From contig JAJDBV010000045.1 in NCBI GenBank assembly GCA_029261165.1, positions 13,271 through 77,270 of the forward strand: 64,000 nt of DNA, written 5' to 3'. Numbering within the stretch: position 1 is the first letter of the stretch; every line of letters begins with the position of its first letter. Under the pieces are notes generated by a model. That model did no database searches and was not told the origin of the DNA. It worked only from the letters and a program-made list of their open reading frames with translations. Origin of the DNA: Nitrospirota bacterium (lineage in GTDB: Bacteria > Nitrospirota > Nitrospiria > SBBL01 > JAADHI01). Below are positions 13,406-32,574 of the stretch, piece after piece. Position numbers and translations under genes: made by a program.

Positions 13406-14701
13406 ATGGAAAAGAAAGACAACAGGCCGGGTGCGGTGACGGGTTATAAGGAGCAGGGATCTGTGGATGACCAAAATACGGTCTTTATCGGACGACAACC
13501 GATTCTCGACAAACGCCACAGGATCATCGGTTTTGAATTGCTCTTTCGTTCTGCCGACAGTTTGGATGCCAACGTGATTGATAACACCGAGGCCAGTGTG
13601 AGGACGATATCCAACTTTCTGAATATTGGTCTTCAGGATCTGATTGGAAAGCGGGAGAAGGGATTTCTAAATGTCGGGACGGAGGTTTTGCTGAGTGATA
13701 TCCTGGAACTTGTTCCGAAAGACCGGGTGGTCATCGAACTCCTGGAAACAATAGAGGTCAATCCTGAGGTGATCTCCCGCTGCCGGAAGTTAAAGGCAGA
13801 GGGATATTCCCTGGCCCTGGACGATTTTATATACGAACCTGCTTATGATCCCCTGCTGGAGATCGTCGACATCGTGAAGGTCGATATCTTACAGATGACG
13901 CCGACTTCAATGCGTGAGACGGTGGATCGACTGAAACGATACCCTGTGACTTTATTGGCTGAAAAAGTGGAGGACCAGAGCCAATATGATGATGTTCTTT
14001 CCTTGGGATTTGATCTCTTTCAAGGATATTACTTCGCAAAACCGACCCTGGTGACCGGAAAACGACTTGATCCCTCTCGGGTGGCGGTTCTTAAGCTCCT
14101 TGAGCAGGTTCTGGTTGAGACGGATGTGGGAGAAGTAGAGCGGACATTCAAGGAGAACCCGCATTTCACCTACAACCTTTTACGGATTGTCAATTCTGTC
14201 GCCATGGGGGTACGGCAAAACATCGAATCGGTCCGGCAGGCGATTGTCCTGCTGGGTCGGGATCAGATCAAGCGCTGGGCGCAATTACTCTTGTTCTCCG
14301 ATAAAAATACGTCCGGAAGTGTTAGCCCCTTGATGCAAACTGCGGCGAAGCGCGGTCGTTTGATGGAACTCTTGGCGGAGGAGTCCGCAAACAACGGTCT
14401 TTCCAGAGGGGTTGTTGATCTGGCTTTTATGACGGGGATACTCTCTTTAATTGATGCCCTTCTGGGCAAGCCCTTGGAGGAGGTCATTGCAGAACTCAGT
14501 CTGGCAGAAGAGGTTCAGGCGGCCTTGCTCACACGTGAAGGAGAATTGGGGAAGCTTTTGATGCTCACAGAAAAGCTGGAGCAGGGAGAATTCGATGACA
14601 TTCTGACCTTATTAGAGGGGAGTTGTCTAGAATTGGGCCACCTCTTCGCGGCGGAACAAAAAGCAAGTGCCTGGACGAATAGATTGGTCGATTCTTTTTA
14701 A
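13406..14701 (+). CDS. EAL-like + HDOD two-domain c-di-GMP signalling protein (YuxH/COG3434 type)
   Basis: EAL-family landmarks 'GRQPIL', 'FELLFR', 'FLNV', 'ELLETIE', 'ALDDF', 'VKVD', 'LAEKVE' and 'FQGYYF'. The C-terminal HDOD-like region has 'LLRIVNSVAMG...LLGRDQIKRW'. Confidence 0.8.
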   Translation: MEKKDNRPGAVTGYKEQGSVDDQNTVFIGRQPILDKRHRIIGFELLFRSADSLDANVIDNTEASVRTISNFLNIGLQDLIGKREKGFLNVGTEVLLSDILELVPKDRVVIELLETIEVNPEVISRCRKLKAEGYSLALDDFIYEPAYDPLLEIVDIVKVDILQMTPTSMRETVDRLKRYPVTLLAEKVEDQSQYDDVLSLGFDLFQGYYFAKPTLVTGKRLDPSRVAVLKLLEQVLVETDVGEVERTFKENPHFTYNLLRIVNSVAMGVRQNIESVRQAIVLLGRDQIKRWAQLLLFSDKNTSGSVSPLMQTAAKRGRLMELLAEESANNGLSRGVVDLAFMTGILSLIDALLGKPLEEVIAELSLAEEVQAALLTREGELGKLLMLTEKLEQGEFDDILTLLEGSCLELGHLFAAEQKASAWTNRLVDSF

Positions 14702-14712
14702 GGAAGCCGGGG

Positions 14713-15345
14713 ATGGATAGTGACGAGACATTTATAGGGCGGCAACCGATCCTGGATCGCAATGAGAACGTTGTGGGTTTTGAATTGCTGTTCCGTTCCG
14801 GCGATTGTCCGGAGGCCAATGTGACAGACGTCACTCAGGCCAGTATCAGTGTTCTTTTAAACTTCCTCGGCAATCAGGATATGCAAGAGAGGATTGGGCT
14901 GAAGAAGAAAGGGTTCCTAAACGTCGGGATGGATCTCTTAATGAGTGATATGATCGAACTCATTCCGAAGGACCGGATGGTCGTCGAGTTGTTGGAAACG
15001 ATCGAGATAGATCATACCGTCATTGCGCGTTGCAGGGCACTGAAGGCGATGGGCTTCCACCTTGCCCTGGACGATTTTGTTTATGATCCGGTATACGATC
15101 CGCTCCTCGACCTTGTTGATATTGTAAAGATTGATCTTCTGGAAATTGCGCCATCGGATGTCCAGGAGACGGTGGCCCGTCTGAGTCAGTACCCAGTGAC
15201 CTTGTTGGCTGAAAAAGTAGAGGGCCCCAGCCAATATGAGGATGCCCAGACAATGGGTTTTGCGTTGTTTCAGGGATATTATCTTGCCAGACCGACAAAC
15301 ATCTCCGGAAAACGTGTTAATCCGGCCTCGCTTGCCCTGGGCTGA
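14713..15345 (+). CDS. Stand-alone EAL-like domain protein, tandem paralog of the N-terminal half of the preceding gene
   Basis: 210 aa, colinear with residues about 25-235 of the upstream protein ('FIGRQPILD', 'GFELLFRS', 'KGFLNVG', 'ELLETIE', 'LALDDF', 'PVTLLAEKVE', 'FQGYY'). It stops exactly where the upstream protein continues into HDOD. Confidence 0.75.
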   Translation: MDSDETFIGRQPILDRNENVVGFELLFRSGDCPEANVTDVTQASISVLLNFLGNQDMQERIGLKKKGFLNVGMDLLMSDMIELIPKDRMVVELLETIEIDHTVIARCRALKAMGFHLALDDFVYDPVYDPLLDLVDIVKIDLLEIAPSDVQETVARLSQYPVTLLAEKVEGPSQYEDAQTMGFALFQGYYLARPTNISGKRVNPASLALG

Positions 15346-15383
15346 GTCGGTCCCTTCCTCGCTTACAGAGAGAGGAATAATCA

Positions 15384-15719
15384 ATGCAAAACATCCCCTT
15401 GATTCTGGCTGCGCCGGGCATGACCCTTGCCAAGGCGGTGATGCGGCCAGATAGTGAAAGCCGGATGCCGATCTGCGGTGCCGGGACCGCCTTAACCGAA
15501 CTCCTGATCGAACGCTTGGATCAGATGGGGATCGCGTCCGTGCTCGTTGAAGGACATCCGGTATTGATCGAAGGGGAGAAAACACCCGAAGCTGAGATCA
15601 AGGCGCTCGATCATCGCTTCAGACAGGTTTGTGAAGACCCGCTCATGATTCGGCTGAAAGAAATCTATAAAGACCGGCTTATTCGCTTGTCAGAAGAGTG
15701 GCATGCAAACGAAGCGTGA
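15384..15719 (+). CDS. Small hypothetical protein
   Basis: 111 aa, no TM. The 'PGMTLAKAV...GTALTELLIERLDQMGIASVLVEG' pattern resembles N-terminal modules seen ahead of HD-type c-di-GMP proteins; this is a weak, by-eye resemblance. It overlaps the next gene by 17 nt. Confidence 0.45.
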   Translation: MQNIPLILAAPGMTLAKAVMRPDSESRMPICGAGTALTELLIERLDQMGIASVLVEGHPVLIEGEKTPEAEIKALDHRFRQVCEDPLMIRLKEIYKDRLIRLSEEWHANEA

Positions 15720-16566
15720 AGAAATAAATCGGATGGTGCAGGATGTGAAGTCTTTGCCGGCGCTTCCCGGCATTGTGGTGAAACTCAGGGCCCTGGCGGA
15801 GAGTGACGCGGCTTCCCTTCAAATCATCGCCCGACTGATTTCGTCGGACCAGATTCTCTCCGCAAAAGTACTGAAGCTGGTCAATTCTCCGTTCTACGGT
15901 TTTCCAGGACGTGTCTCCACGGTTTCCAATGCCTTGATTCTCCTCGGGGTCAACGTGGTGAAAGCCCTTGTCCTGAGTTCTTCGATCTTTGATTTGATGG
16001 AAGAAAATGTGGTGGGACTCTGGGAACATTCTTTGGGTGCCGGCGTCGCTGCAAACATTATTACAAAGAGGCTTGCATTGCCGGATGGAGAAGAGATCTC
16101 GACCGCGGCCTTGCTCCACGATATTGGAAAGGTCATTATTAAGATTAAACTCAAAGAGGAGGCCGAACGGATCAGATTAAAGGTTGATGGGGGCGAGGTT
16201 TCAATCAGAGAGGCCGAAAAGGAAGTGCTTGACGTCGATCATGCTGAAATCGGAGGCTGGCTTGGAAAGACCTGGTGCCTTCCCGAGAAACTGATCGAAC
16301 CCATTGCCTGTCATCATGATCCCGTACGGTCGGTGACCTATGCGGATCGAACTGCCGTGGTTCATCTCTCAGACATTCTGATCAAGGCGAGCGGGTTCGG
16401 ATATAGCGGGGATGATCTTGTCCCTCGGATTCAAGAGGCTGCCTGGAAGAAACTGAATCTGAGCGATCATGTCTTGAGGGAGATCGTTGATGAGATTGAA
16501 GACAAACTCATCGAGGTAAAAAATTTCAGCTTGGAGATTCAATCTAGCCATGAAGGGAAAGTTTAG
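15703..16566 (+). CDS. Stand-alone HDOD-domain protein
   Basis: 'LPALPGIVVKLRAL...LISSDQILSAKVLKLVNSPFYGF...VSNALILLG', then 'WEHSLG', 'AALLHDIGKV' and 'HAEIGGWL', which are typical of HDOD. Confidence 0.8.
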   Translation: MQTKREEINRMVQDVKSLPALPGIVVKLRALAESDAASLQIIARLISSDQILSAKVLKLVNSPFYGFPGRVSTVSNALILLGVNVVKALVLSSSIFDLMEENVVGLWEHSLGAGVAANIITKRLALPDGEEISTAALLHDIGKVIIKIKLKEEAERIRLKVDGGEVSIREAEKEVLDVDHAEIGGWLGKTWCLPEKLIEPIACHHDPVRSVTYADRTAVVHLSDILIKASGFGYSGDDLVPRIQEAAWKKLNLSDHVLREIVDEIEDKLIEVKNFSLEIQSSHEGKV

Positions 16567-17473
16567 AATTGCGCTCCTTTCGGACGATCGCAAGATGTCT
16601 GAACCGCTCATCCTTCTGCTTGAGAGCCGGGAATACTGCGTTGTTCTGAGGACGGACTTTTCCCGTGTGCTGGGTGCGCTTTATTCCGATCCTCCCGATA
16701 TGATTATCATCGATTTGGGAGCATTTACTCCGGAACGATTGAAGATCGTCTCAGAACTAAAGACAGACAGCTATTTTGCGATTATTCCGATGATCGGTTT
16801 CATCCGTCCATCGATAGAAGAATCTGTCGCGTGGGAACAGCTCCCGCTCGATGACTACATGGTTCTTCCTGTCCAAACCCCTGAACTTTTCAGCCGGATT
16901 GCGCTGTCAATTCAGCGGATGGAACGGATCTTTGACCACAATCCTCTGACCAAACTCCCAGGAAATACCTCGATTCGGCGTGCCGTCGAAAAGAGTATGG
17001 GGAAGCCCAGAGCGGTCTGCTATGTCGACATCAACCTATTCAAGCCGTATAACGATATTTATGGTTTTGTCCGTGGAGACGAAGTGATTCGTATGCTTGC
17101 GAGGATCATTTCAAATGCCGTAAAGGAATCAAAGGAGGGGGGATTTTCAGGACATATCGGAGGGGATGATTTTGTTTTTATCGTTTCAGGGAAAGAGGCA
17201 GAGGCGGTATCGCAACTCGTCATTGACCGGTTTAGCATGATTGTCGTGAACCTTTTTGATAAGGAAGCGCAGGCCAGAGGCTATTATATTTCCAAGGACA
17301 GGCAGGGGCGACGACAGCGTATCCCGCTGTTGGGCATCGCGATCGCCATTGTCCCGACTTCGAACACGGCCATACAGCACTATGGAGAAGTTGCGGCACG
17401 CGCAGCGGAACTCAAGAAGGAGGCGAAAGCGTCTAAAGCGAGTTGCTACGTCATCGATTGCAGGAAGGCCTGA
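16550..17473 (+). CDS. Degenerate-receiver + GGDEF-family protein with a GGDDF motif
   Basis: The N-terminal receiver-like fold ('DMIIIDL') has 'YMVLPV' in place of the conserved KP. The C-terminal GGDEF-family core has 'VDINLFKPYNDIYGFVRGDEVI' and 'GHIGGDDFVFIV'. No RxxD I-site. Confidence 0.75.
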   Translation: MKGKFRIALLSDDRKMSEPLILLLESREYCVVLRTDFSRVLGALYSDPPDMIIIDLGAFTPERLKIVSELKTDSYFAIIPMIGFIRPSIEESVAWEQLPLDDYMVLPVQTPELFSRIALSIQRMERIFDHNPLTKLPGNTSIRRAVEKSMGKPRAVCYVDINLFKPYNDIYGFVRGDEVIRMLARIISNAVKESKEGGFSGHIGGDDFVFIVSGKEAEAVSQLVIDRFSMIVVNLFDKEAQARGYYISKDRQGRRQRIPLLGIAIAIVPTSNTAIQHYGEVAARAAELKKEAKASKASCYVIDCRKA

Positions 17474-17493
17474 TAGCTTGTTGAAAAACTCGT

Positions 17494-17533
17494 AAGCCGT
17501 CATTCCCGATTAAACAATCGGGAATGACGGCTT
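17494..17533. terminator. Perfect 18-bp stem / 4-nt loop hairpin between convergent genes
   Basis: AAGCCGTCATTCCCGATT-AAAC-AATCGGGAATGACGGCTT. It lies 21 nt after the plus-strand stop and about 60 nt after the minus-strand MCP stop. A T5 run follows on the minus strand (ACGAGTTTTTC). Confidence 0.7.
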
Positions 17534-17594
17534 AACCACAATTAGATGCTGTTTTAACAGCCTGTAAACGGTTGTATCCCTCTCCCCGTCGATA

Positions 17595-19610
17595 TCAGGT
17601 ATGAACGAGGGGGGGTGTCGAACCGTTCTTTGGACCGGTGGTTTTCGCTGTCTTATGAGAGGATTCTTCCGACGATATCAGAAGATTCATGAGATCTCCT
17701 GACATCTTGGAGAGATCTACGGAGGCCGACAGGACATTTTCTGTCCCTTGGTTCATGTGGTCTGCATTTTGAGAGAGTTTTTCGATATGCGTGCTGACCT
17801 CTTTGCTCCCATGTGCGGCTTCAGACATGTTCCGGGTAATTTCACCGGTCGTCGCCGCCTGTTCTTCCACTGCCCCGGCGATCGTTGTTGAGATCTCATT
17901 GGTTTTTTCCACAATTTTTCCAATCTCCTTGATCGATTCCACCGCATCGTCAGTGCTATCCTGAATGGCCTTTATCTTTTCCTGGATTTGACCCGTTGCC
18001 TCGGCCGTGGCGTTTGCCAGGTCTTTGACCTCGCTTGCGACGACCGCAAATCCTTTTCCCGCTTCTCCGGCTCGGGCCGCTTCTATTGTGGCGTTCAAGG
18101 CGAGGAGGTTTGTTTTTCCGGCAATGGCGTTAATGACCTTGACCACCTGGCCGATCTCCTTACTGGAATTTGCCAATTTGGTAATTTTCTTATTCATTTC
18201 CGAAGACATGACCACCGCATTATTGGTGATTGTTGTTGCCTCCTGGACATTTTGTGAGATCTCACTGACAGTGGTCGTCATTTCCTCTGCGGCAACAGCA
18301 ACGGTTGCGACATTTTGGTCTGTTTTTTGACTAATGCTCAGGGCCTCGTTCGCCGCCTTCATAGCAATCTCAGCCTGTCTTTTCATCTCTTGACTGGCAC
18401 TGGACAGCTCTTCTGAAGCGGCCGAGACCGAACTCGATGTTTCCTTCAAGGCGCTTTCCATTCTTGTTTTATTCGTATCGATGGCCCATGTGGCCATCTG
18501 TCCGATGCGATTACCGTGTTGGTCATGGATAGCAACAGCGATGAGTTCGAGGGTCTGATCGCCCAGTGTAATGTTACCTTTATGGGGCAGTGAGTCTTCG
18601 TCTAAAAGGATCTGTCTGACCCGCCCGGGATCGGTACCAAAGCGGTCGATGCAGGTTCCCACAATCTGATCCACGGGAACGGGGAGGAGGTGCGCGATTT
18701 TTTTAAGGTTCTTCAGAGAGGCCGGGTTCATATATTCAATGACGAGGTCGTTGTTTGCAAAGATCATATTTGCGTGGCTTCCATCCAGCATGGCCTCGGC
18801 CCGTGCGAGCGTCGTGGCGCTCGCGTCTGAGGCCGTCTTCAATTTCTCAATCATGTGAGAAAAACCCCGGGCCAGTATCGCGATCCCGTCTTTCCCTTCC
18901 GTGTTCAGTTCAACAGAAAAATCTCCATTTCCGATTTTTTCTGCAGCGTCAGAGAGTTTCCTGATGGGATGGATAATGGTATGACTAATCTTCTGTGAGA
19001 TGAAGGTTAGTAAAATAAGAGCTAGGATCGATCCTCCGATAACAACACGCTTTGCATGACTTACAGCAAAACTTCCCTCAGTCTTTGTTTCGAGGATACC
19101 CTCTTCAATCATATTGGAGACTTTTTCCATTTCGACCGCTAAATCTTCATACACCAATAAAAATACTACTTCTCGATCTGCGGCCGCCACCGGATCTACA
19201 AACGCGAGTTTCGTAATCTCTTCAGCGGTACGAATGTATCTTTCCAGTTCATCTTTTAATAATTTTAGGGCTTCATCTATTATCGGAGCAGTGACCAATT
19301 CCTCATTCTTTTTTATCATCTCCCGAAAGGTAGCGGCATGTGACTTGAGTTCCCTTTCAATCTTGTCTTTTTCAGAGGGATTGTGTTCTCCGGCCAGAAT
19401 CGCCTCGAGGACATCGCCTTTTAAGGCATCGTGCATCATATCTGCCGTGAGATGTGTGCGCATGATTTGTGCCTGATCGGTGATGTTTTGTATGGCGACA
19501 TCGGTTTCCGAGACGCCAAGAATACCGGCAATTGCGATTCCGATAACAAGGGCGCAGCCCGTGAGTGACAAGCTTCTGAGCTTCTTCCTGATGGTCCAAT
19601 TCTTTATCAT
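17595..19610 (-). CDS. Membrane-bound methyl-accepting chemotaxis protein (periplasmic helical sensor, HAMP, PAS-like, MCP signalling domain)
   Basis: 671 aa with two TM segments. HAMP '[20 protein letters not shown]'. PAS-like segment '[16 protein letters not shown]'. MCP hairpin '[37 protein letters not shown]'. Confidence 0.9.
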
Positions 19611-19756
19611 TATTTGTTCCTTCTCATTTCTGAATCGTATTTATGAGCGTCACTAAATCAGATCTGGAGATCAACACGGCTGAATATTGTAAGACATCAC
19701 AGGCCAGGTATCCTATTATTTCGATATGACCAGTCGAGGATTTTTTCCTCAAGTTC

Positions 19757-19783
19757 TTATCGGCAGTTTGCCTCAAAACATTA
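19757..19783 (-). promoter_or_regulatory. Sigma-28-type promoter for the 671-aa MCP
   Basis: The minus strand reads TAATGTTT-N11-GCCGATAA. The -35 is at 19783-19776 and the -10 at 19764-19757. It lies about 145 nt upstream of the start codon. Confidence 0.6.
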
Positions 19784-19825
19784 AGTCTGAATTAAAATAT
19801 TTTGTATTTTGTGTCACGATCGGTC

Positions 19826-20410
19826 TCAAGTGACCGTCATTCTCTTGGATTCGTTCTCGTATCGGACCTGTCTTTCCCTTTTTATGATATAGCGGAAGAG
19901 GTCTTCCTGATCGGACTCCTTAAGATCCCTGAATGCAACACCCATCTCAAGATCGGTTTGGTCCTGAACATCACGGGTCTGTTTTTTTTCTCGCGTCCGG
20001 ACAACTTCTCCCTCCAGGATCAATTCCTTGAAGGGGAGGATTGGCAGGATCAATCTGATCTGAAGCTTTGTTCCCTTGGGTTCTACGTTGGGCACAATAA
20101 ACTTCATCCCGGACGCACTCAAATCGGAAACGACGGCCTGGTGTGGAAAAAAAGACTGATCTTTATCTTCGGCGAGGAGTTTGATGAGGTAGGTGACTTT
20201 CCAGTCAAGCCACAGGAGCATGTTCATCATATGGCGATCCGCCTCCTCCTGATGGGCATGGCTCTTTGAGGCAATCTCACGGACTTCCATAGAAGAAAAC
20301 GAATCGAAGACGTCTGGCTTCATCGGGCTGGAATCGTTCGTGTCGATGATCCGGTATCTCACCGGACAATCTGCGCTGACACGGACAAACTGTCGTTGTT
20401 CTGCGTCCAT
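19826..20410 (-). CDS. PilZ-domain protein with a long insertion between the two c-di-GMP-binding motifs
   Basis: 194 aa. RxxxR ('RQFVR', residues 6-10) and DxSxxG ('DLSASG', residues 96-101) are separated by about 85 aa, against the usual 20-30. Confidence 0.7.
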   Translation of the reverse strand: MDAEQRQFVRVSADCPVRYRIIDTNDSSPMKPDVFDSFSSMEVREIASKSHAHQEEADRHMMNMLLWLDWKVTYLIKLLAEDKDQSFFPHQAVVSDLSASGMKFIVPNVEPKGTKLQIRLILPILPFKELILEGEVVRTREKKQTRDVQDQTDLEMGVAFRDLKESDQEDLFRYIIKRERQVRYENESKRMTVT

Positions 20411-20422
20411 TTCAGAGGTTCC

Positions 20423-21889
20423 TTAGTTCACTGCGCTCCGGCAGGCCAGGCTGTCCATAGAAGTCATCATGATCTGGTTGCGCCCGTTTTTCTTTGCCCG
20501 GTAGAGGGCTTGATCGGCAAGTTCAAAAAGGACGTCTGAACTTGTTATTTCCGGGAGCGGGTAGTGCGCGACTCCGATACTCACCGTCACTTCGATGGCT
20601 TTGCTGTTTAGATTAAAATAGGTTGTTTGTACTTGTTCTTTCATGCGCCTCGCAACCACAAGAACTTCTTCCAGATTCGTTCCCGGGAGGAGGGAAACAA
20701 ACTCGTCTCCGCCGTAGCGTGCAAGGATGTCGACCTCGCGGATACTGTTATTTAAGACCGAGACCATCTTTTGCAGTACCTGATCACCCACCAGGTGTCC
20801 ATGCGTGTCGTTGATGTCCTTAAAATAATCGATATCCACCAGAATTAGGGAGAGGGGCGTGTCGTAACGCTTGGCTCTTCTAAACTCGCGTTCAAGTGTT
20901 TTGGAAAAAGCCCTTCGATTCAAGGTCCCGGTGAGTTCATCTCTCACGGCCAGGTCCTGAACCTGCTGGTACATTTCTGCATTCCGAAGGGCAAGCGTCA
21001 GCGGCGTGGAGATCATTGAAAGCATCTTGGTTTGATAGGGGGTGAAGGGGCCCAATACACCCGTACGGAGTTCTTCCCGTTTATCCACACGGGCAAGCCG
21101 CAAGAGACCAATCTTCTCTTTACCGATGACCAGAGGGATGATAATTTCATATCCCCCCTTGCTTACAACCGGGCCCATGATTTCCTGATCCGTTTTCGTG
21201 AATATTCGGCCTTCCTCTAATGTTCTTTCTGAAAAATGTTTGGCGACGGTTCTCAAGCGTTTGGAGTGGGTCTCAATCCGTGTTTGGTCTGATTTATCCA
21301 TGTAGAGGCATGCGATATCATATGGGACAATATTTTTAATATTCCCAAAAGACAAACGGACGACCTCCTCGATGCGAAGTGACTGACTCAAGCTTTGGTT
21401 CAACTGATGAAGGAGGGAAAGATCCTTGTTCCATCTCTTGAGACGATCCCGTTCTTCCGCGATTGATTTGTTTGCCAATTGAAGGTGATTTGAAAGATCC
21501 ATGATTTTGATGAGGTCTTCGCGGTTCTTTAAACCCTTCCGGATGGTTTTGGCTAAACTTTTCAAAGGGAGTGGGGTCTTGATGTAATCGAATACGCCTG
21601 ACCGAAATAAAACACCCAGCTTTCCGACGTCCAGGGGAGGGCCGAACAGCAAGACACAAGCGGTTGATTGATTTGCACGGAGTTTCTTAAGGAATTTGAG
21701 TATGTCCGTGTATGGAAAATCTGTTTCGATTAGAATAACATCAATCGGGTCATTTTCATGAATGACCTGAGAAGTAGAACCCGCCTCTGCCACCGAGAGC
21801 TTGTATTCGCTGTTCTGAACATAGCGTATAAGGTCTTGATGCTTGTCCACATTGGTACTCATGAGGTGTATTGTCTGCATTTTTCTCAT
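20423..21889 (-). CDS. Diguanylate cyclase: atypical receiver-like N-terminus, GAF-like middle, GGDEF with I-site
   Basis: 'LTGTLNRRAF', 'DIDYFKDINDTHGHLVGDQVL', and 'REVDILARYGGDEFV' (RxxD five residues before GGDEF). The ATG at 21889 is preceded by GGGAG. The annotated longer ORF would run into the upstream gene. Confidence 0.85.
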   Translation of the reverse strand: MRKMQTIHLMSTNVDKHQDLIRYVQNSEYKLSVAEAGSTSQVIHENDPIDVILIETDFPYTDILKFLKKLRANQSTACVLLFGPPLDVGKLGVLFRSGVFDYIKTPLPLKSLAKTIRKGLKNREDLIKIMDLSNHLQLANKSIAEERDRLKRWNKDLSLLHQLNQSLSQSLRIEEVVRLSFGNIKNIVPYDIACLYMDKSDQTRIETHSKRLRTVAKHFSERTLEEGRIFTKTDQEIMGPVVSKGGYEIIIPLVIGKEKIGLLRLARVDKREELRTGVLGPFTPYQTKMLSMISTPLTLALRNAEMYQQVQDLAVRDELTGTLNRRAFSKTLEREFRRAKRYDTPLSLILVDIDYFKDINDTHGHLVGDQVLQKMVSVLNNSIREVDILARYGGDEFVSLLPGTNLEEVLVVARRMKEQVQTTYFNLNSKAIEVTVSIGVAHYPLPEITSSDVLFELADQALYRAKKNGRNQIMMTSMDSLACRSAVN

Positions 21890-21998
21890 CTCTACTCCCA
21901 AAGTTAGACTCGGCCCCAAGTAAATGCAATATGTATGCCATTGAAAGGCAGGAAGGACGCGGAGTGGAATGCATCCGGGATATGGGCCATGTTCTTCC

Positions 21999-22592
21999 TC
22001 ATGGGGAACCCGAAGAACCGGATCGGGTGTATATCGTGAGGAGTTTCTCGTGCAGGTCGTGGAGGAAGTCAAGGTTTTCTGAAAGCTCACTTCCTTCCAG
22101 GATGTCCTGGGATAAAAACGCCTCCATTTTCTTGGATGTCTTTTTTAATTGATGGAGTAAGTCATTGTTTTCTCTAATTAATTTTATCCGTTCTACCGCA
22201 TTGTTTACAACGACATAGAGCTCGGCCAGTTGGAAGGGTTTTGTTAGATAATCATAGGCCCCTCCTCGGATGGCCTCGATGGCGGAGCGAAGAGACGCAT
22301 AGCCGGTAATGATGATGACATGGATCTCGGGGGAAAGCGCACGGATTTTATTGAGAAGTTCAATACCGTTTAACCCGGGCATCTTGAGGTCGGTGAGAAC
22401 CAGATCGAAAGCGGCTTTGTCAAGAAGTTGACAGGCCTGCTCGCCGGATTTGGCGGTCTTTACCTGATACCCTTTCTGGGAAAGTGCTTCTTCCAAGAGG
22501 TCTCTTGGGCCGCTTTCGTCATCAACCACGAGAATCTTTACACGCGTTTCGGTCGGCAAAGTTTTCTTAGCTCTGGGCAAAGGTTTCCTCAT
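21999..22592 (-). CDS. Single-domain response regulator with a C-terminal coiled-coil tail
   Basis: 'ILVVDDESGPRDLL', 'DLVLTDLKMPGLNG', 'IIITGYASL' and 'DYLTKPF'. No output domain is recognised. Start taken at Met-14 (22592); 22631 is possible. Confidence 0.85.
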   Translation of the reverse strand: MRKPLPRAKKTLPTETRVKILVVDDESGPRDLLEEALSQKGYQVKTAKSGEQACQLLDKAAFDLVLTDLKMPGLNGIELLNKIRALSPEIHVIIITGYASLRSAIEAIRGGAYDYLTKPFQLAELYVVVNNAVERIKLIRENNDLLHQLKKTSKKMEAFLSQDILEGSELSENLDFLHDLHEKLLTIYTRSGSSGSP

Positions 22593-22827
22593 CAGTAGAC
22601 CCTTCCCTGGGGTCTTGGCGTTCCACTTCATTTAACGCGGGGGGCAATTCCGAGAACTTTCTCCGGGACGCTTCCGAAATGGTCACCCGGTCCCTTCTAG
22701 AGACATCTTGGAGTTTTGTTGTTCCCTCCTGGGGTTCCGGACCCGACCCCGTCGTGCTTGCTTTGGACTTTATAAGGTGATGATAGGTCCTCAACACATT
22801 TTGAACTTGATAAATTGTAATACTCAT
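22567..22827 (-). CDS. Small hypothetical protein, first gene of a sigma-28-driven operon (weakly FlgM-like)
   Basis: 86 aa. A strong RBS (AAGGAG) sits 6 nt before the ATG, and a sigma-28-type promoter lies about 40 nt upstream. 'DRVTISEASRRK' is faintly reminiscent of FlgM-type proteins; there is no firm family call. Confidence 0.55.
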   Translation of the reverse strand: MSITIYQVQNVLRTYHHLIKSKASTTGSGPEPQEGTTKLQDVSRRDRVTISEASRRKFSELPPALNEVERQDPREGSTDEETFAQS

Positions 22828-22864
22828 ACGGGCTCCTTAGGAGAAGAAAGGGGTACTTTCTCCT

Positions 22865-22892
22865 CTATCGGAAGGTTGGTGTGGAAACTTTA
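22865..22892 (-). promoter_or_regulatory. Sigma-28-type promoter for the small-ORF / receiver / GGDEF / PilZ operon
   Basis: The minus strand reads TAAAGTTT (22892-22885), a 13-nt spacer, then CCGATAG (22871-22865). The -35 is perfect; the spacer is 1 nt longer than in the other sites. Confidence 0.55.
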
Positions 22893-23167
22893 GAAGATGT
22901 TGAAGCGAAACACTTCTGGAATCCTGCCTGAGCGGGAATGACGGCGCAAAGCAAAGGTTCACTTGAAATCGTAAGTTTTTTTAATGTTCTCCCGTCCGGA
23001 GGCCGCAAGAGAGACGAGGGTGTCTATAAGGTCTCGCGCTCATATTTAGGCCAGATTTGGTCGATCTGTAATGAGAAACACCGGAGGAATCGTTATTCTA
23101 TTTCGAGGATGGATCGATTGAAGATCGGCCGAAGATGGCCTGAAGATGAGCGTGAGAAGGGGGAGGG

Positions 23168-23527
23168 TTAGGTGTGTGGGCCGTAGGCCTGAACTATTTT
23201 TTTTCCAAGATCAAGATCTTGTCTCAAGCCTCTCATTTTCTGAACGACCAATGTCTTGATCTGATTGTCTATCGAGAGGGTTTTTCGGATCAATTCGGCC
23301 TGCCTTTCGGCGGCCTCCTTGTCCATGCGCTGGTTTTTTCCCGGAGTCCTGACCCGCTTCAGGATATTTTGGCGGCCCGTTTCCTGAGAAGTCAGGCTGT
23401 GCCAATCCCCCCGTTGTGCGTTCTCAAACATTTGCTGGGTCACGGCGTAGACCTCAGCATACAGGACGATATTCTGTTGATCTGTCGGATGCTCTTTTTT
23501 TCTTCGTATGCGTGCCGGATTCTTCAA
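23168..23527 (-). CDS. fliT: FliT-like flagellar export chaperone
   Basis: 119 aa, helical, directly downstream of fliS. The tail 'IRKTLSIDNQIKTLVVQKMRGLRQDL...KKIVQAYG' parallels E. coli FliT '...ILDNESRVKQLLQIRMDELAKL...SVLSAYG'. Confidence 0.6.
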   Translation of the reverse strand: MKNPARIRRKKEHPTDQQNIVLYAEVYAVTQQMFENAQRGDWHSLTSQETGRQNILKRVRTPGKNQRMDKEAAERQAELIRKTLSIDNQIKTLVVQKMRGLRQDLDLGKKIVQAYGPHT

Positions 23528-23533
23528 GTGGAA

Positions 23534-23965
23534 TTATCCCCTCCGGGTCCCTTCCAAGGACATCTCCTGTGTGTCTGATTTGGGCCGACTTCCTATTTCC
23601 TTCCAGGCCCCTTTTATTTCAGACAGCAATTGAATGACCTCATCCAGAGCTTCGACATTGTTTTTATGATTGGCCTCTACCAGTTTTACAGACATGTATT
23701 CGTATAATGCCATGAGATTGGCCGCAAGTTCTCCACCCGCTTCAACGTTCAGGCTTCGGGCCAGTTCTTGTATAATACTGATTGCCTTGGAAATCGCATT
23801 TCCCTTCGCCGGGATATTTTTACGTGAGATCTCTCTTTTGGAAGCGATGATGGCCTCAATTGCGCCTTCCAACAACATTAAAATCAGCCCATGCGGATCG
23901 GCGGCAGCGACCGCGGTTCCAATTCCGACCTCCGTGTATCGATTCATAAGGCTATTTTGCGGCAT
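23534..23965 (-). CDS. fliS: Flagellin-specific chaperone FliS
   Basis: 143 aa with 'DPHGLILMLLEGAIEAI' and 'KAISIIQELARSLN...GGELAANLMALYEYM'. Confidence 0.9.
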   Translation of the reverse strand: MPQNSLMNRYTEVGIGTAVAAADPHGLILMLLEGAIEAIIASKREISRKNIPAKGNAISKAISIIQELARSLNVEAGGELAANLMALYEYMSVKLVEANHKNNVEALDEVIQLLSEIKGAWKEIGSRPKSDTQEMSLEGTRRG

Positions 23966-24015
23966 GAACTCCTCCTATCTTTGTTTTTGTCGAGGTCGAC
24001 CGTAAGTATGGATCA

Positions 24016-26031
24016 TTAATTCGTTGCGCTGAAATTTGTCAGTCCTGTTAAGATGCTGAATTGTTGGGTCAGAAAACTACCCGTCGCCGTCATGCCGCTC
24101 AGCAGAACGTCAAGTCGGGTAAATTGGTCCCGGAGATTTTTTTCAGTGTCGAACAGCCGTGAACTTAAGACCTCTCTCTGGCCGATAATATCTTCGATAC
24201 GCCGATTGATCCCATCGGTCCGGCTGGCAATTTGGCCAGAGGTCCCGAGTAAGTCTACGGCCAGTTTTTCTAATTGAAAGGCATATCCTTCTGAATAAGC
24301 GATGGTTCCCCGGCTTCCCGTGGCCCCTCCTGTAATCTTAATTTTGAGCCCCTCTGCCGTGCTTCCTGCAGAACCGGTCAGGAATTGCCCGAAGCCGGTG
24401 GCGGCACTGTTGTTGATTGTTCCGGCCACATCGGTTCCCGTTGTATCTGTCGGCGTCCCCAAAAGGTTTGTTTTGCCGTTTCCTCCGGTCACATTTACTT
24501 TTGAAGCCGATCCGTAACCGGCCGAGGTCATCGTCAACACACCGACTGATTCCGATACGGTGACAGAGATGCCTGCCGTCGAGAAAGCGTTGGCCCCATT
24601 GATTTTGGACTGGACCTCCGTTGCGAGGGTGCCAGCGGTATAGGTCCCGGCCGCAAGTGTGACCGTGGCGCTCCCGCCGTCAACGGTGACAGTCAATGTA
24701 TCGTTAATTCCGGTTGTAATCGTCAGGCCCGCCGCCGCACTGCCGACCGTCTTCCCTTGTGTGGCCAGGCTGGTTACCGACACCGCGTAGTTGCCCGGAC
24801 TGGTCTTGTCTGTTGCGCTGTCATACTTTATCAGGCTGTCGGACGGCTTGCCAATGGCGACGAAAAGACCTGCAATATCGTTAAAGTTCGTATCGATGGC
24901 GGTTTGCAGCCGGGTAGAGTCAAGGGCCAGTGTTCCATCCTTTTGAAAGGAGACGCCAATATCGGACAATGCCGTAAAGGCACCCGTCAAGGCTGTGACG
25001 GAGGAGGTCATGACGCGTCGGATTTGCCTCTGAATTGACAACACAGAAGTGTCGCCCTGTAAAAGCCCTGCTTGATTGGTGACGGGATCGAAGGCGATCA
25101 GATCGGAAATTGCCGAGTTCACGGTATTAAAGCTGTTCACAAATGTATCGACAGAGGTCTTTAGCCCGCTGGTGTCCTGTGTAACGGTCAGGGTTTCCGC
25201 ACTGCCGATATTTTCCTTGAGAAGGTTCAGCGTCATCCCCTGAATCACATCTGTGATCGTATTGGATGTCTTGACGATGGAGATGCCGTCGACTTTCAGA
25301 TTTGCGTCTTTGGCCGTGACCGTCTCGGAAAGATTTTGTGTTGCGGCTGGATCATGCGCCAGGAGGGTCGACAATGCGGCATCGCCCGTAACCGTGACCT
25401 TGATGCTGTTTTTTTCTCCGATCTTGTCGGAGCTTAAAGAAAGACGGTAAGGGGAGACGCCGCCATCATTCACGATAGAGGCGGTTATGCCGATCTTCGC
25501 CGCGTTGATCGCATCACGGATGCCCAGGAGGGAGTTGTTCGTACTGTCGATGGTCACTGTTGACGCTCCGGAGCCGTTGCTGGCAAAGCTTGCCCCCGTA
25601 TACTTTCCCGTGTTCGAATCGAAGGTGCCGCCGCTGATCGTGCCGAAGTCAAAAGTCAGCGTGCCATTTCCAACCACATCCGTGGTATTCGCTTGCCCGA
25701 CGGAAGCCAGCTTTTGTGCCTTGGCCAGTTGGGTTACTTCGACTGAGAAAGACCCTGGGCCCGCCGTCGTTCCTGCCGAGGCTGTAAAGACTGTTTTATC
25801 GGAGGAGACCACATTGAGGTTCTGAAATTTTGATAGATTATTTAAATCCTTGACGGCGTCCTGGAAGGAAGAGATGGTCCCGCTCAAGGTCCCATACGCA
25901 CTGAGTTCGGCCTGAAAGCCGGCCTCTTTCTGATCCAGAAGGAGCAAGGGGCGTTGCTCAATTTCCATTAACTGGCCGATGATTCCGTTGACGTCAAGAT
26001 TTGATCCGATTCCCGGGGAGGCGATAGCCAT
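24016..26031 (-). CDS. fliD: Flagellar filament cap protein FliD (HAP2)
   Basis: 671 aa. N-terminus 'GIGSNLDVNGIIGQLMEIEQRPL...QAELSAYGTL'. Conserved C-terminal helix 'EKNLRDQFTRLDVLLSGM'. Confidence 0.9.
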   Translation of the reverse strand: MAIASPGIGSNLDVNGIIGQLMEIEQRPLLLLDQKEAGFQAELSAYGTLSGTISSFQDAVKDLNNLSKFQNLNVVSSDKTVFTASAGTTAGPGSFSVEVTQLAKAQKLASVGQANTTDVVGNGTLTFDFGTISGGTFDSNTGKYTGASFASNGSGASTVTIDSTNNSLLGIRDAINAAKIGITASIVNDGGVSPYRLSLSSDKIGEKNSIKVTVTGDAALSTLLAHDPAATQNLSETVTAKDANLKVDGISIVKTSNTITDVIQGMTLNLLKENIGSAETLTVTQDTSGLKTSVDTFVNSFNTVNSAISDLIAFDPVTNQAGLLQGDTSVLSIQRQIRRVMTSSVTALTGAFTALSDIGVSFQKDGTLALDSTRLQTAIDTNFNDIAGLFVAIGKPSDSLIKYDSATDKTSPGNYAVSVTSLATQGKTVGSAAAGLTITTGINDTLTVTVDGGSATVTLAAGTYTAGTLATEVQSKINGANAFSTAGISVTVSESVGVLTMTSAGYGSASKVNVTGGNGKTNLLGTPTDTTGTDVAGTINNSAATGFGQFLTGSAGSTAEGLKIKITGGATGSRGTIAYSEGYAFQLEKLAVDLLGTSGQIASRTDGINRRIEDIIGQREVLSSRLFDTEKNLRDQFTRLDVLLSGMTATGSFLTQQFSILTGLTNFSATN

Positions 26032-26214
26032 AGTTCCTCACTTTTTTAGACAGATCCTTTTAGACCAGGATGTTGTAACTTCTCAGGTTGCCGATATTTT
26101 TTTATCACTGTCCTCGGGCGGCGTTGTTGTGGCGCGCGAAGCGCTCCCGTAGCCCTCGCGCCTTGCCCCGAAAGGAAACCCGGCAAGCTGAACAGTGACA
26201 ACATCCGTGAATGT

Positions 26215-26230
26215 TGCAACTTCAGTGCCT
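26215..26230 (-). promoter_or_regulatory. Sigma-54-type (-24/-12) promoter upstream of fliD-fliS-fliT
   Basis: The minus strand reads AGGCAC-TGAAG-TTGCA, with the GG and GC separated by 10 nt (consensus TGGCAC-N5-TTGCW). It is about 185 nt upstream of the fliD ATG. Confidence 0.6.
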
Positions 26231-26257
26231 TAATCTCATTGTTGTTGCCCGGAATGA

Positions 26258-26629
26258 CTACCCGACGGTATGCAGGATCGCGCTCATGTCACGCTCGAGA
26301 TGATGCGCGAGGGCCAGCACCTCGTCTGACGGGATCTGGCGTATGATCTCCTTTGTCTCAGGATTAACGACGGTAATCACTGTACGGTCTGCCACTTCAT
26401 CAATCCTGAAATGAAGGTCACGCTCCATCTTCCCTGCAAACGCATTCAGTTTATCAACTGTTTGCCGTAGGGTCTCGCTTGCCGCCGGTGTTGCTTCAGT
26501 GTTCTCCGGAGTGCCGTGGGGAACATCTTGCCCACGTATCGGCAAACTTATCCGACCCTTGGATGGTAAGGTCTTGCCCGAACCGCTTACGGGGACGACC
26601 TGTTCCGGGATAGGATCTATTGGAGTCAT
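26258..26629 (-). CDS. flaG: Flagellar protein FlaG
   Basis: 123 aa with 'LHFRIDEVADRTVITVVNPETKEIIRQIPSDEVLALA', the characteristic FlaG C-terminal block. Located downstream of flagellin. Confidence 0.85.
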   Translation of the reverse strand: MTPIDPIPEQVVPVSGSGKTLPSKGRISLPIRGQDVPHGTPENTEATPAASETLRQTVDKLNAFAGKMERDLHFRIDEVADRTVITVVNPETKEIIRQIPSDEVLALAHHLERDMSAILHTVG

Positions 26630-26656
26630 GCAATGCCTCCCTCATGATGATGGGTC

Positions 26657-26686
26657 GGCGCTCGGGGAAGATCGCCCCCGAGCGCC
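26657..26686 (-). terminator. GC-rich 11-bp hairpin between flagellin and flaG (attenuator/partial terminator candidate)
   Basis: GGCGCTCGGGG-N8-CCCCGAGCGCC, starting 29 nt after the flagellin stop. No clear U-tract, so function is uncertain. Confidence 0.4.
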
Positions 26687-26714
26687 GTTCCTATCAGTTG
26701 TCGGCGGACTTCTC

Positions 26715-28157
26715 TTACTGGAGAAGTGCCAACACGTTCTGTGGCAGGGAGTTGGCCTGAGACAAGATGGCGATACCCGCTTGCTGCAGGATCTGGCCTC
26801 TTGCGAGGGCCGCCGTTTCGGCCGCGAAGTCGGCGTCTTCAATCCGGCTCCTTGATGCCGAGAGGTTTTCCGCCGTCGTCGAGATACTGACGATGGTGGA
26901 GGTGAACCGGTTCTGAAGGGCACCCAGATCGGCACGGGTGCTGTTGATCGTGGTCAGCGCCGCGTCGATAATCGCCAAGGCGTTGGTCGCCCCCGTTGCA
27001 GTCGTCAAATCGACCGACGAAACACCGGCACCTACGGTGGTCGTTGCCGCAGTGACGCCGATCGTTGCCCCGATCAACGCAGACTCCGTGCCACCGATGG
27101 TGATGCCGTCGACTGACGAGGAGGTCAGATTGATCGCTGCCTGGGTGGTGGCCACGACCAGGCCGCTGTCGCCGGCAGTGGTTCCAGAGATTTGGATGTT
27201 CCGGCCATCGGCGGCGGTCAGTGTATAGCCAGCGGCGGAGGCCACTGCGGTCACCCCGGTCTGGCTGCTTATGGAATTGATGGCGGCGGTCATTTCTCCC
27301 GCAGCCACGGAAGCATCGGCGGAGAGGACAACTGCGCCTGCCGTCCCGAGAGCGATCCCGTTAAGCGACATGCCCGCGGTGTCGCCACCGACAGCGGTGG
27401 CAGTGACCGCGAGAGAGGTCGCGTCGATCGTTGCCGTAACGCCGCTGTTTCCAGAGACCGCGTTGATGGCGGCGGCCTTGGAAATGGCACTCGCCGTGTC
27501 CAGGGTTGAAGACACGCCGTCGGCGGTACTCGCACCGATGGCCGTGCCGTTCAGGACCAGGCCTCCGGCCGTCAATGCTGTGGCGGTCGTTGCAGTCAGG
27601 GCGTTCAGGTCTGTCACAGAACTTGATCCCGATCCCACCCCTAAAGCAGCACTTCTTGAGCTTGAGATCGAGGAAATCGTAATCTGGTTGGAGCCTCCGG
27701 AGTTGGCTCCGACCTGGAATGTCTGTGCCGAGAAGGTCCCGTCGAGCAGGACAACGCCATTGAAGTTCGTGTTCTGTGCGACACGGTCGATCTCAGAAAC
27801 CAGGAGCGAAGCCTCTGCATTCAGGGCCGCACGGTCTGTCGTGCTGTTGGTGGCATTGGCCGACTGGACGGACAATTCACGGATACGCTGGAGGTTGTTA
27901 ATCACCTCGTTTAAGGCCCCCTCTGCGGTCTGAGCGAGAGAGACCCCGTCGTTTGCATTCCGGGCCGCCACATTGAGCCCACGGATCTGTGCGCTAAATC
28001 TAGCGACAATCGCGACGCCCGCCGCGTCATCTTTCGCACTGTTCAAGCGCAGACCGGAAGAGAGACGCTGCAATGCCGTTGACAATGCGCTTTGCGACTT
28101 GTTCAAGTTTCTTTGTGCATTTAAAGATGGAATGTTTACATTGACTGTTAATCCCAT
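26715..28157 (-). CDS. fliC: Flagellin
   Basis: N-terminal 'NIPSLNAQRNLNKSQSALSTALQRLSSGLRLNSAKDDAAG' and C-terminal 'AETAALARGQILQQAGIAILSQANSLPQNVLALLQ'. The central domain is rich in Ala, Thr, Ser and Gly. The ATG at 28157 is preceded by AAGGAGGA. Confidence 0.95.
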   Translation of the reverse strand: MGLTVNVNIPSLNAQRNLNKSQSALSTALQRLSSGLRLNSAKDDAAGVAIVARFSAQIRGLNVAARNANDGVSLAQTAEGALNEVINNLQRIRELSVQSANATNSTTDRAALNAEASLLVSEIDRVAQNTNFNGVVLLDGTFSAQTFQVGANSGGSNQITISSISSSRSAALGVGSGSSSVTDLNALTATTATALTAGGLVLNGTAIGASTADGVSSTLDTASAISKAAAINAVSGNSGVTATIDATSLAVTATAVGGDTAGMSLNGIALGTAGAVVLSADASVAAGEMTAAINSISSQTGVTAVASAAGYTLTAADGRNIQISGTTAGDSGLVVATTQAAINLTSSSVDGITIGGTESALIGATIGVTAATTTVGAGVSSVDLTTATGATNALAIIDAALTTINSTRADLGALQNRFTSTIVSISTTAENLSASRSRIEDADFAAETAALARGQILQQAGIAILSQANSLPQNVLALLQ

Positions 28158-28233: not shown

Positions 28234-28239
28234 GTAGTC

Positions 28240-28501: not shown

Positions 28502-28505
28502 TCAC

Positions 28506-28943: not shown

Positions 28944-28946
28944 GGT

Positions 28947-32572: not shown

Positions 32573-32574
32573 TT

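Follow-up and report, generated by a model that had tools for sequence, protein, structure and literature searches.

A Nitrospirota flagellar-regulon module that pairs a probable sigma-28 unit for a small protein and a receiver with a probable sigma-54 unit for a diguanylate cyclase and a PilZ protein

In a 64-kb stretch of a Nitrospirota genome (GenBank contig JAJDBV010000045.1; hereafter the window), four genes on the minus strand, which encode a small protein, a stand-alone receiver, a diguanylate cyclase and a PilZ protein, are located between flagellar filament genes and the gene of a methyl-accepting chemotaxis protein (MCP). The homologues of the window's genes likewise point to a Nitrospirota MAG (Nitrospiria / Manganitrophaceae-like) as its source. 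We read these four genes as a conserved flagellar-regulon module of Nitrospirota that consists of two co-directional transcription units, a sigma-28 unit for the small protein and the receiver and a sigma-54 unit for the cyclase and the PilZ protein, and we give this reading a probability of roughly 0.55. A preliminary description of the same DNA had proposed a single, sigma-28-driven operon that is expressed only late. The sigma-28 assignment was upheld for the small protein and the receiver, but it is doubtful for the whole set, because a second conserved promoter motif, of the sigma-54 type, was found in the gap between the receiver and cyclase genes. On the other hand, the broader idea of a flagellum-linked circuit that both writes and reads cyclic di-GMP (c-di-GMP) stands, because the promoter is supported, the genes are co-conserved, and the catalytic and I-site residues of the cyclase and the ligand-binding residues of the PilZ protein are intact.

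The layout of the locus (Table 1) agreed with the preliminary description in most respects. The four genes were found on one strand at the places given there, with the filament genes fliC, flaG, fliD, fliS and fliT on the upstream side and the MCP gene on the downstream side. The 340-nt gap between fliT and the small open reading frame (ORF) contains a sigma-28-type site, TAAAGTTTCCACACCAACCTTCCGATAG, and the strong ribosome-binding site noted before could be placed as AAGGAG, 5 nt ahead of ATG 22827. The overlap of the small ORF and the receiver gene is exactly the 26 nt proposed earlier when the receiver starts at ATG 22592, which agrees with its homologues. The cyclase start was set at ATG 21889, and not at the GTG 22090 of the ORF caller, which gives a 488-aa protein, the same length as the orthologue in locus L002 (related loci are referred to by such numbers). 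Hence, the gap between the receiver and the cyclase is 109 nt long, while the PilZ gene starts 12 nt after the cyclase stop. The next gap, of 215 nt, between the PilZ and MCP genes, carries the MCP gene's own promoter, TAATGTTT-N11-GCCGATAA, and the sole strong terminator of the whole array (17534..17493) follows the MCP gene.

The element upstream of the small ORF, TAAAGTTTCCACACCAACCTTCCGATA (22892..22866), reads TAAAGTTT-N13-CCGATAG or, in the usual notation, TAAAGTTT-N12-TCCGATAG. Its N12 spacer is 1 nt above that of the sigma-28 consensus, TAAAGTTT-N11-GCCGATAA, and the fliC and MCP sites of the window have spacers of N11. The pattern TAAA-N14-17-CCGATA matched the window six times versus 0.26 matches expected, and a stricter regular expression matched four times versus 0.12 expected, at sites preceding cheA, the MCP gene, this module and fliC; flgM is also preceded by a related site of the sigma-28 type. 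The window encodes FliA itself, which was called with TIGR02479 at 264.7 bits (cut-off 189.6). The same element was observed before the orthologous small ORF in L002, L003, L005, L008, L009, L011-L016, L027, L031, L037, L049, and L051, at a distance of 30-65 nt from it, and of about 200 nt in L002, while the proteins encoded in the loci sharing it are merely 35-55% identical and the flanking DNA is unalignable. When 17 distinct loci (180 kb) were scanned, 12 matches were obtained versus 0.32 expected, and each of the 12 was located before a small ORF or a flagellin gene. The element also accompanies the module when it is placed beside che genes (L005) or beside an NAD synthase gene (L008). By all computational tests available the sigma-28 promoter of the module is real, and it is predicted to be read by FliA; the earlier claim for it is supported by the match to the consensus, the resemblance to the fliC, MCP, cheA, and flgM sites, and the conservation in most related loci. 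These data suggest that what sigma-28 specifically supplies is probably the small protein together with the receiver.

The gap between the receiver and cyclase genes contains the motif TGGCATACATATTGCA (21940..21925), in which GG-N10-GC is combined with TGGCA and TTGCA in a full match to the -24/-12 signature of sigma-54 promoters. The pattern used for such sites was GG-N10-GC with TGGCAC-N5-TTGCW, located ahead of a gene and on its coding strand. The motif [N]GG[CT]A[CT]-N5-TTGC[N] was present before the cyclase gene in 16 of the 16 distinct loci first examined, including L008, where the receiver gene was lost, and L012, where the motif is in tandem, and it was likewise present in the metagenome loci L027, L029, L031, and L037. 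Overall, 24 matches were counted in 217 kb versus 4.7 expected. In a MAFFT alignment of 11 gaps, the mean identity of which was 32%, GGCATA…TTGC was the sole conserved block, with both of its parts nearly invariant while the flanks diverged. The site lies on the coding strand, 35-140 nt from the cyclase start across the loci. Equivalent sites were also found in the window before fliD (26230; conserved in L002) and before flgF (51381), which suggests that this lineage uses both a sigma-54 and a sigma-28 tier of flagellar genes. Both tiers are also used by the flagellar systems of Vibrio and Pseudomonas. The conserved site in the gap, together with its equivalents before fliD and flgF, indicates that the cyclase and the PilZ protein can be made independently of FliA, and these two genes probably belong to the sigma-54 tier as well. 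No convincing intrinsic terminator or attenuator was detected in the gap, either in the window (fold z -1.1) or in 13 related gaps, where terminator-like calls were few and weak, so that sigma-28 read-through into the cyclase gene could still take place. Two further features were noted around these sites. In L012 (4257..4291) the sigma-54-type sites before the cyclase are TGGCATAGCTGTTGCG and, 20 nt on, TGGCATAGCTATTGCA, and L037 (5341..5376) is arranged likewise. In the array formed by fliD-fliS-fliT, the small-protein and receiver genes, the cyclase and PilZ genes, and the MCP gene, sigma-54-type and sigma-28-type promoters alternate, and there is one strong terminator at the end.

The preliminary description had pointed to co-conservation in related genomes as a check on the four-gene set, and the order of small protein, receiver, cyclase and PilZ protein did recur in more than 15 Nitrospirota loci. 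It is kept in L002, L005, L006, L009, L011-L016, L022, L027, L031, and L037, while L038, L049, and L050 contain more divergent copies. The module is found beside filament genes, beside the che cluster (L005), or beside unrelated genes (L008), and these varied settings suggest that it is a self-contained unit. The MCP gene was considered as a further member and rejected: it follows the PilZ gene only in the window and in L002, the other loci with annotated flanks have different genes at this place, and its own sigma-28-type promoter marks the 3′ boundary of the module. A literature search for prior descriptions of the module in Nitrospirota found nothing specific. In L008 (7929..9964) the small ORF is degenerate, its second motif being lost, while the sigma-28 and sigma-54 sites are both kept. 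In the complete genome of Ca. Manganitrophus sp. GAC4 (CP114561; L022, 3554..6425) a single open frame (3554..4303) covers both the small ORF and the receiver, and the match to PilZ falls into two segments, which could reflect gene fusion, pseudogenisation or assembly frameshifts.

The small protein (86 aa), to which the preliminary description could assign no confident family, has no Pfam match. Its family is small, with 25 representatives among 1.84 billion proteins, and it is defined by an N-terminal helix with the motif M.I..YQ[VI][QH]NVLRTY and by a FlgM-like motif, D-R-V-T-I-S-x-E. However, 25 of 29 relatives matched the NCBIfam model NF041863 (DVU0524 family, "FlgM-associated protein") at E<=0.01, with a best value of 4.8e-13, and a profile of the Nitrospirota small proteins retrieved annotated DVU0524 members from Desulfosoma and Syntrophobacteraceae. 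The window protein itself obtained 20.6 bits (E 4e-4), which is below the curated cut-off of 40 bits, while relatives adjacent to flgM obtained 49-73 bits, above it. Judging from these profiles, the small protein is a short, divergent relative of the DVU0524 family rather than an orphan. It shares with this family the motifs ..Y.[VI]Q.VLRTY and D/E-K/R-V-[ST]-I-S-x-E, a similar size, and an upstream promoter of the sigma-28 type, but, unlike the typical members, its gene precedes the receiver gene and not flgM, which is 23 kb away. The possibility that it is FlgM itself (PF04316) was rejected. The true flgM is elsewhere in the window (46608..46306) and only a short motif is shared: hhalign found no more than an 18-column match at D-x-V-x-[IL]-S (P 0.004, probability 8.6%), only one of the 29 small-protein members matched Pfam FlgM (E 0.09), and the sigma-28-binding C-terminal helices of FlgM (G.Y.vD...IA) are absent.

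The genomic surroundings of the DVU0524 relatives were compared in 32 metagenome loci, in which the small gene directly preceded flgM in 18 and the cyclase gene in two, and was upstream of a receiver gene in seven, while the remaining five were truncated contigs; in the seven loci of the receiver type, the cyclase and PilZ genes were usually next. The flgM-linked forms are often 140-150 aa long. Sigma-28-like sites were found before the small gene in Desulfosoma L023, where the DVU0524 gene adjoins flgM (TCAAGCTT-N12-TCCGATAT), in L024 and L025, and in many flgM-linked loci. As far as the motifs tell, the constant trait of the DVU0524 family is that its gene is the first one downstream of a sigma-28-type promoter. 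In the AlphaFold2 (AF2) model of the window protein, residues 5-26 form a helix with good confidence, followed by a disordered linker and then, at residues 52-60, by a short helix (pTM 0.29). The protein is largely disordered and looks like one that folds on binding; its translation is coupled to that of the receiver in the module and to that of FlgM in other settings. A literature search for DVU0524 found no paper. The 18 loci with longer DVU0524 proteins (99-152 aa) encoded directly before flgM were L028, L030, L032-L034, L036, L039-L043, L046-L048, L052, L054, L055, and L057, and the C-terminal half of the L046 protein gave a near-threshold Pfam match to FlaG (E 1.8e-4, 22 bits, cut-off 23.8). 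A divergently transcribed cyclase gene next to the DVU0524-flgM pair of Desulfosoma L023 was not accepted as an orthologue of the module cyclase, as only its GGDEF domain matches.

The receiver was described before as a single-domain response regulator with a tail, and it does consist of one REC domain (E 7.7e-32) followed by a helical tail. All residues of the phosphorylation chemistry are kept, as D24, D25, D68, T96, and K118 are invariant in 14 orthologues. The closest structure is the receiver with linker of Aquifex NtrC1 (1zy2), which was matched over residues 19-160 with an E-value of 6.5e-34. The C-terminal tail is conserved as L..L...L..[VI]Y.R.G, and there is no output domain. A variant of the module was found in L024 (5220..8640) and L025 (5296..8599), which consist of a DUF8042 gene, a sigma-28-like site, the small protein, the receiver and a REC-GAF-HD-GYP phosphodiesterase; L024 is near fliD, fliS, and flgN, while L025 is outside a flagellar locus. 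In this variant the phosphodiesterase stands in place of the cyclase and the PilZ protein, and the stand-alone receiver is an orthologue, 40% identical over the full length, of that of the window module. The occurrence of the small protein and receiver with an HD-GYP enzyme suggests that this pair is tied to enzymes of c-di-GMP turnover in general.

The cyclase contains a GGDEF domain (Pfam E 3e-47) with the motif REVDILARYGGDEF. The residues G393, G394, D/E, and E396 of the A-site GG[DE]EF are conserved in 14 orthologues, in which the metal- and substrate-binding residues D352, D354, N360, D361, D369, K466, and R470 are invariant. Also invariant is the I-site RxxD (R384-E-V-D387), five residues before GGDEF, in accordance with the intact I-site reported in the preliminary description. 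Since all catalytic and I-site residues are kept, the protein is predicted to be an active diguanylate cyclase. The earlier "receiver-like/GAF-like/GGDEF" domain order was upheld in its first and last parts, while the GAF-like part received weak Pfam matches in 3 of the 14 orthologues (E 0.02-0.07). A degenerate receiver forms the N-terminus (hhalign probability 96%, E 2e-9); it is related to the neighbouring receiver by BLASTP (8e-6), has E or D at the acceptor position, and is without the acidic pair, Thr and Lys in register. Together with the linker it aligns to the REC-GAF-HD-GYP protein up to the start of the GAF region (E 1e-5). In PDB as well as in NCBIfam (6e-55), PleD ranks among the nearest GGDEF relatives. 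With PleD (REC-REC*-GGDEF), WspR, and DgcR the module shares a phosphorylatable receiver, a degenerate adaptor receiver and a GGDEF domain with an I-site; however, unlike in PleD, the phosphorylatable receiver stands alone as a protein and has another promoter, and a coiled coil and a probable GAF domain stand between the pseudo-receiver and GGDEF. We infer that the paralogous pseudo-receiver and the coiled coil of the cyclase are probably the parts on which the receiver acts, because the genes stay linked across lineages and enzyme types, because the receiver domain of the cyclase has lost its own phosphorylation chemistry, and because both proteins carry NtrC1-like linkers.

The PilZ protein (Pfam E 6.9e-12) contains both c-di-GMP motifs, RxxxR (R6-Q-F-V-R10) and DxSxxG (D96-L-S-A-S-G101), which are conserved in 19 homologues with R10, D96, S98, and G101 invariant. 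With both motifs intact it is a predicted c-di-GMP binder, which fits the effector role given to it in the preliminary description. The family comprises 19 proteins in a search of 5.8 billion sequences, and 14 of 14 relatives in species-representative genomes are from Nitrospirota. In the AF2 model (strands at 15-21 and 90-97, helices at 40-50, 55-83, and 165-193) two helices are inserted between beta1 and beta2 of the barrel, and a long basic helix forms the C-terminus. The top Foldseek match was the tetrameric PilZ (tPilZ) protein XCC6012, over 190 columns and thus the full length (E 6e-5, TM about 0.5), and the next matches were the PilZ domains of YcgR and MotI. All 19 homologues have D69-W-K71 in the long helix of the insert, and 16 of them have N as the fifth residue (DWK[MVL]N). 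The tPilZ interlocking motif is [DENH]x[KR]h[DEN], and tPilZ proteins were reported in Nitrospirae (10.1101/814665); the window protein has T at the fifth position (DWKVT), outside this motif. The module protein shares with the tPilZ proteins XCC6012, PA2989, and Campylobacter jejuni FlgX a stand-alone organization, a length of about 190 aa, the two-helix insert, and the basic C-terminal helix, and the D-x-K-h-[N/T] stretch of its long inserted helix resembles the interlocking motif. Its modelled fold, with this insert and this helix, can be described as tPilZ-like. Intact c-di-GMP motifs are a feature it has in common with PA2989, a tPilZ protein that binds c-di-GMP (PMC11725899), and not with XCC6012 or FlgX, the latter being a tPilZ protein that binds the flagellar stator and is located beneath it (PMC11725899). 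A second stand-alone PilZ protein of the window (127 aa; 9865..10248, plus strand), with intact RAFTR and NVSMNG motifs, is encoded inside the che operon between cheY (9462..9842) and cheZ (10211..10936), a placement that is MapZ-like.

Beyond gene content, residues, promoter motifs, synteny and family links, we infer the following course of events. Expression of the cyclase and the PilZ reader would fall in the sigma-54 tier, together with that of fliD and flgF. The receiver and the small protein would come later, after completion of the hook-basal body and the release of FliA. Depending on its phosphorylation state, the receiver would then pair with the pseudo-receiver and coiled coil of the cyclase and reset the dimerisation of its GGDEF domain, much as in a PleD whose two receiver domains were split into separate proteins, while the I-site would cap the c-di-GMP output. 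The PilZ protein would read c-di-GMP and act on the motor, most likely on the stator, by analogy with FlgX, YcgR, FlgZ, and MotI. The effect could go either way, with a brake released at completion or a brake armed. A chemotaxis target, as for MapZ, is also possible, because the module of L005 adjoins che genes.

Several observations weigh against the two-unit reading and the mechanism built on it. The sigma-28 site is absent before the small ORF in L006, where this ORF begins 68 nt after fliT, and in L022. L008, L029, and L035 have no receiver gene, which implies that the cyclase can exist without it, and no cognate kinase gene was found beside the module. Neither rpoN nor a gene for a sigma-54 activator was found within the window, and both promoters were called from motifs and their conservation. 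For the reader protein, the confidence of the model is moderate (pLDDT 69), none of the 19 members matched the tPilZ family PF16823 at E<=1, and a sequence-profile search of PDB found only MotI (E 0.04), and not XCC6012, 3PH1 or 3RQA. An assignment to tPilZ by sequence was dropped, as both of these searches were negative. The most direct alternative is that all four genes form one FliA-dependent operon and are all expressed late, in which case the TGGCA-N6-TTGCA block in the gap would be, for example, a repressor site or an element of the 5′ untranslated region. The conserved gene order, the two tight junctions (the 26-nt overlap and the 12-nt gap) and the missing terminator in the 109-nt gap are consistent with this, and so are the HD-GYP variants, whose receiver and enzyme genes are spaced by 9-72 nt with no sigma-54 motif, and which therefore probably are single operons. 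However, all informative positions of the block in the gap (GG-N10-GC, TGGCA, TTGCA) agree with the sigma-54 consensus, whereas the N5 spacer is free to vary; the block keeps to the coding strand and to the 35-140 nt before the cyclase start, it is kept after the loss of the receiver (L008) and duplicated in L012, and comparable sites precede fliD and flgF, so that a single late operon appears unlikely.

The role of the receiver and the target of the output could also be different from those proposed above. The late receiver might be a feedback device on sigma-54 flagellar transcription instead of a partner of the cyclase: it would drain phosphate from a flagellar sigma-54 activator of the FleR/FlrC/FlgR type, or form dead heterodimers with it, and the middle-class promoters, including that of the cyclase and PilZ genes, would be shut down once sigma-28 is active. 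The receiver is indeed an NtrC1-type REC domain with linker and without AAA+, its nearest relatives are the receivers of the sigma-54 activators NtrC1, AtoC, NtrC, and FlgR (1.2e-22), and it is encoded directly before the sigma-54 promoter. It also keeps the linker helix, which mediates inhibitory dimers in NtrC1 and DctD. On the other hand, there is no activator gene nearby, and the linkage of the receiver to REC-GAF enzymes persists in L024 and L025, where these enzymes have other outputs and no sigma-54 promoter, which points to a partnership with the enzyme at the protein level; this feedback role seems quite improbable to us. We are nearly as sceptical that the output is the transition from motile to attached life, or flagellar expression or assembly, with the PilZ protein controlling adhesins or exopolysaccharide, or else filament assembly and export (FliS, FliT, FlgM). 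The location beside fliD-fliS-fliT in many loci and the usual pairing of the small protein's family with flgM could be explained in this way, and the other c-di-GMP genes of the window (EAL, HDOD, GGDDF, a second PilZ) suggest a wider network. However, the PilZ protein has no fused output domain, the nearest of its structural relatives with a characterized role act on the motor (YcgR and MotI, matched by their PilZ domains in Foldseek, and FlgX, which by the literature has the tPilZ fold of the top match XCC6012; PMC11725899), and the module of L005 is beside che genes, not assembly genes. A more far-reaching version of the two-unit reading, which we regard as quite unlikely, is a c-di-GMP stator switch coupled to the assembly checkpoint. 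In this version a FlgX-like tetrameric PilZ protein and the cyclase, made early in the sigma-54 tier, would hold or organise the stators while the flagellum is built, and the receiver and the FlgM-like protein would follow after the release of sigma-28. The small protein would be tied to the FlgM/export checkpoint, perhaps as a binding partner of sigma-28 or FlgM, or as a substrate of the flagellar type III system. If this were true, DVU0524 would be a general, unrecognised late-flagellar regulator, which partners FlgM in Desulfobacterota, and receivers and c-di-GMP enzymes in Nitrospirota and other lineages.

Flagellar c-di-GMP brakes are known from a few model Proteobacteria and Firmicutes, with one or two parts each (YcgR with PdeH, FlgZ, MotI). 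In E. coli, ycgR and yhjH have FliA-bound or FliA-dependent promoters (PMC4183435). The class 3 pair of YcgR and PdeH/YhjH in E. coli and Salmonella thus resembles the module in having c-di-GMP parts under FliA promoters of the TAAAGTTT-N11-GCCGATAA type and a PilZ protein dedicated to the flagellum. The differences are that the co-expressed enzyme in E. coli is a phosphodiesterase, while that of the module is a cyclase, with an HD-GYP phosphodiesterase in sister lineages; that YcgR is a PilZN-PilZ protein, while the module protein has a single PilZ domain with a two-helix insert; that the cyclase and PilZ genes have their own sigma-54-type promoter; and that E. coli has neither the receiver nor the small-protein partner. 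In Pseudomonas the expression of flgZ depends on the sigma-54 activator FleQ and on FliA (PMC3913639). The flgM-flgN-flgZ operon also shares with the module the location of a PilZ gene (FlgZ, a brake on MotC) inside a flagellar operon and the link to FlgM. However, FlgZ is a homologue of YcgR and depends on c-di-GMP from unlinked cyclases (WspR, SadC), while the module encodes a cyclase and a receiver itself, and has a DVU0524-type protein as its FlgM-like element where the Pseudomonas operon has FlgM. Hence, FliA-controlled c-di-GMP parts and a PilZ brake in a FleQ- and FliA-dependent flagellar operon are already established. What is new, though not categorically so, is that input, writer and reader are packaged together, that the module is divided between two sigma factors, that the reader is tPilZ-like while its c-di-GMP motifs are intact, and that a DVU0524-type protein is the partner. 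We therefore read the module as a form, staged in its expression, of the c-di-GMP brake known from other flagellar systems, and not as one late operon.

Table 1. Features of the module and of the surrounding window. Coordinates follow the numbering of the 64-kb window; features on the minus strand run from high to low positions.
Feature	Position	Strand	Remark
Small ORF, 86 aa	22827..22567	-	short divergent relative of DVU0524 (by profile match)
Stand-alone receiver, NtrC1-type	22592..21999	-	no output domain; coiled-coil linker
Diguanylate cyclase (predicted), 488 aa	21889..20423	-	pseudo-receiver, coiled coil, probable GAF, GGDEF
PilZ protein, 194 aa	20410..19826	-	single PilZ domain with two-helix insert
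Sigma-28-type promoter, TAAAGTTT-N12-TCCGATA(G)	22866..22892	-	about 35 nt before the small ORF
Sigma-54-type -24/-12 promoter, TGGCATACATATTGCA	21940..21925	-	35 nt before the cyclase ATG
Sigma-28-type MCP promoter, TAATGTTT-N11-GCCGATA(A)	19758..19783	-	separate from the module
MCP (HAMP + MCPsignal)	17595..19610	-	neighbour, not a conserved module member
FliT-family gene	23527..23168	-	last filament-cluster gene before the module
Sigma-54-type site, AGGCACTGAAGTTGCA	26215..26230	-	before fliD-fliS-fliT; same position in L002 (6685)
fliC	28190..26715	-	upstream of the module
Sigma-28-type site before fliC	28241..28266	-
fliA (sigma-28)	643..1437	+	factor expected to read the promoter at 22892
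Sigma-28-type site before cheA	3463..3489	+
flgM (true FlgM)	46608..46306	-	23 kb from the module
Sigma-28-type site before flgM	46669..46695	-
Sigma-54-type site before flgF	51366..51381	-

The window also contains other genes related to motility and c-di-GMP. On the plus strand, after motA and two motB-like genes, the region 13406..17473 encodes an EAL-HDOD protein, a short EAL protein, a 111-aa ORF, an HDOD protein and a receiver-like protein in which GGDDF replaces GGDEF, and this block of c-di-GMP genes is conserved in L002. A sigma-54-like site, GGGCATGACCCTTGCC (15416..15431, plus strand), is located at the 5′ end of the 111-aa ORF, before the HDOD gene; it has a counterpart at the same place in L002 (17479, minus strand) and may be an internal promoter. 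The block, on the plus strand, and the MCP gene, on the minus strand, converge on one terminator with a 19-bp stem (17493..17534). A protoglobin-MCP gene (2077..3387, plus strand) adjoins fliA. Between fliW and flgL, a large island on the minus strand (29261..42413) resembles a flagellin glycosylation locus, with a 1115-aa TPR-GT41 protein, several methyltransferases, a DegT aminotransferase and sugar-nucleotide enzymes. An Rfam scan of 17000..29000 (E<=1) gave two matches at chance level and no c-di-GMP riboswitch.

The module brings together a writer, a reader and a two-component input, and it does so in a phylum for which hardly any genetics exists. Its division between two sigma factors predicts that the regulator arrives after the enzyme that it regulates, which would make a simple timing device. 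The DVU0524 family gains a signature, in which its gene is the first one after a sigma-28-type promoter and is followed by flgM, or by a receiver and a c-di-GMP enzyme. The PilZ protein of the module is a candidate c-di-GMP-responsive counterpart of the stator-binding FlgX. The sigma-54 and sigma-28 motifs described here could be used to map the flagellar tiers in genomes of Nitrospirota and Manganitrophaceae.

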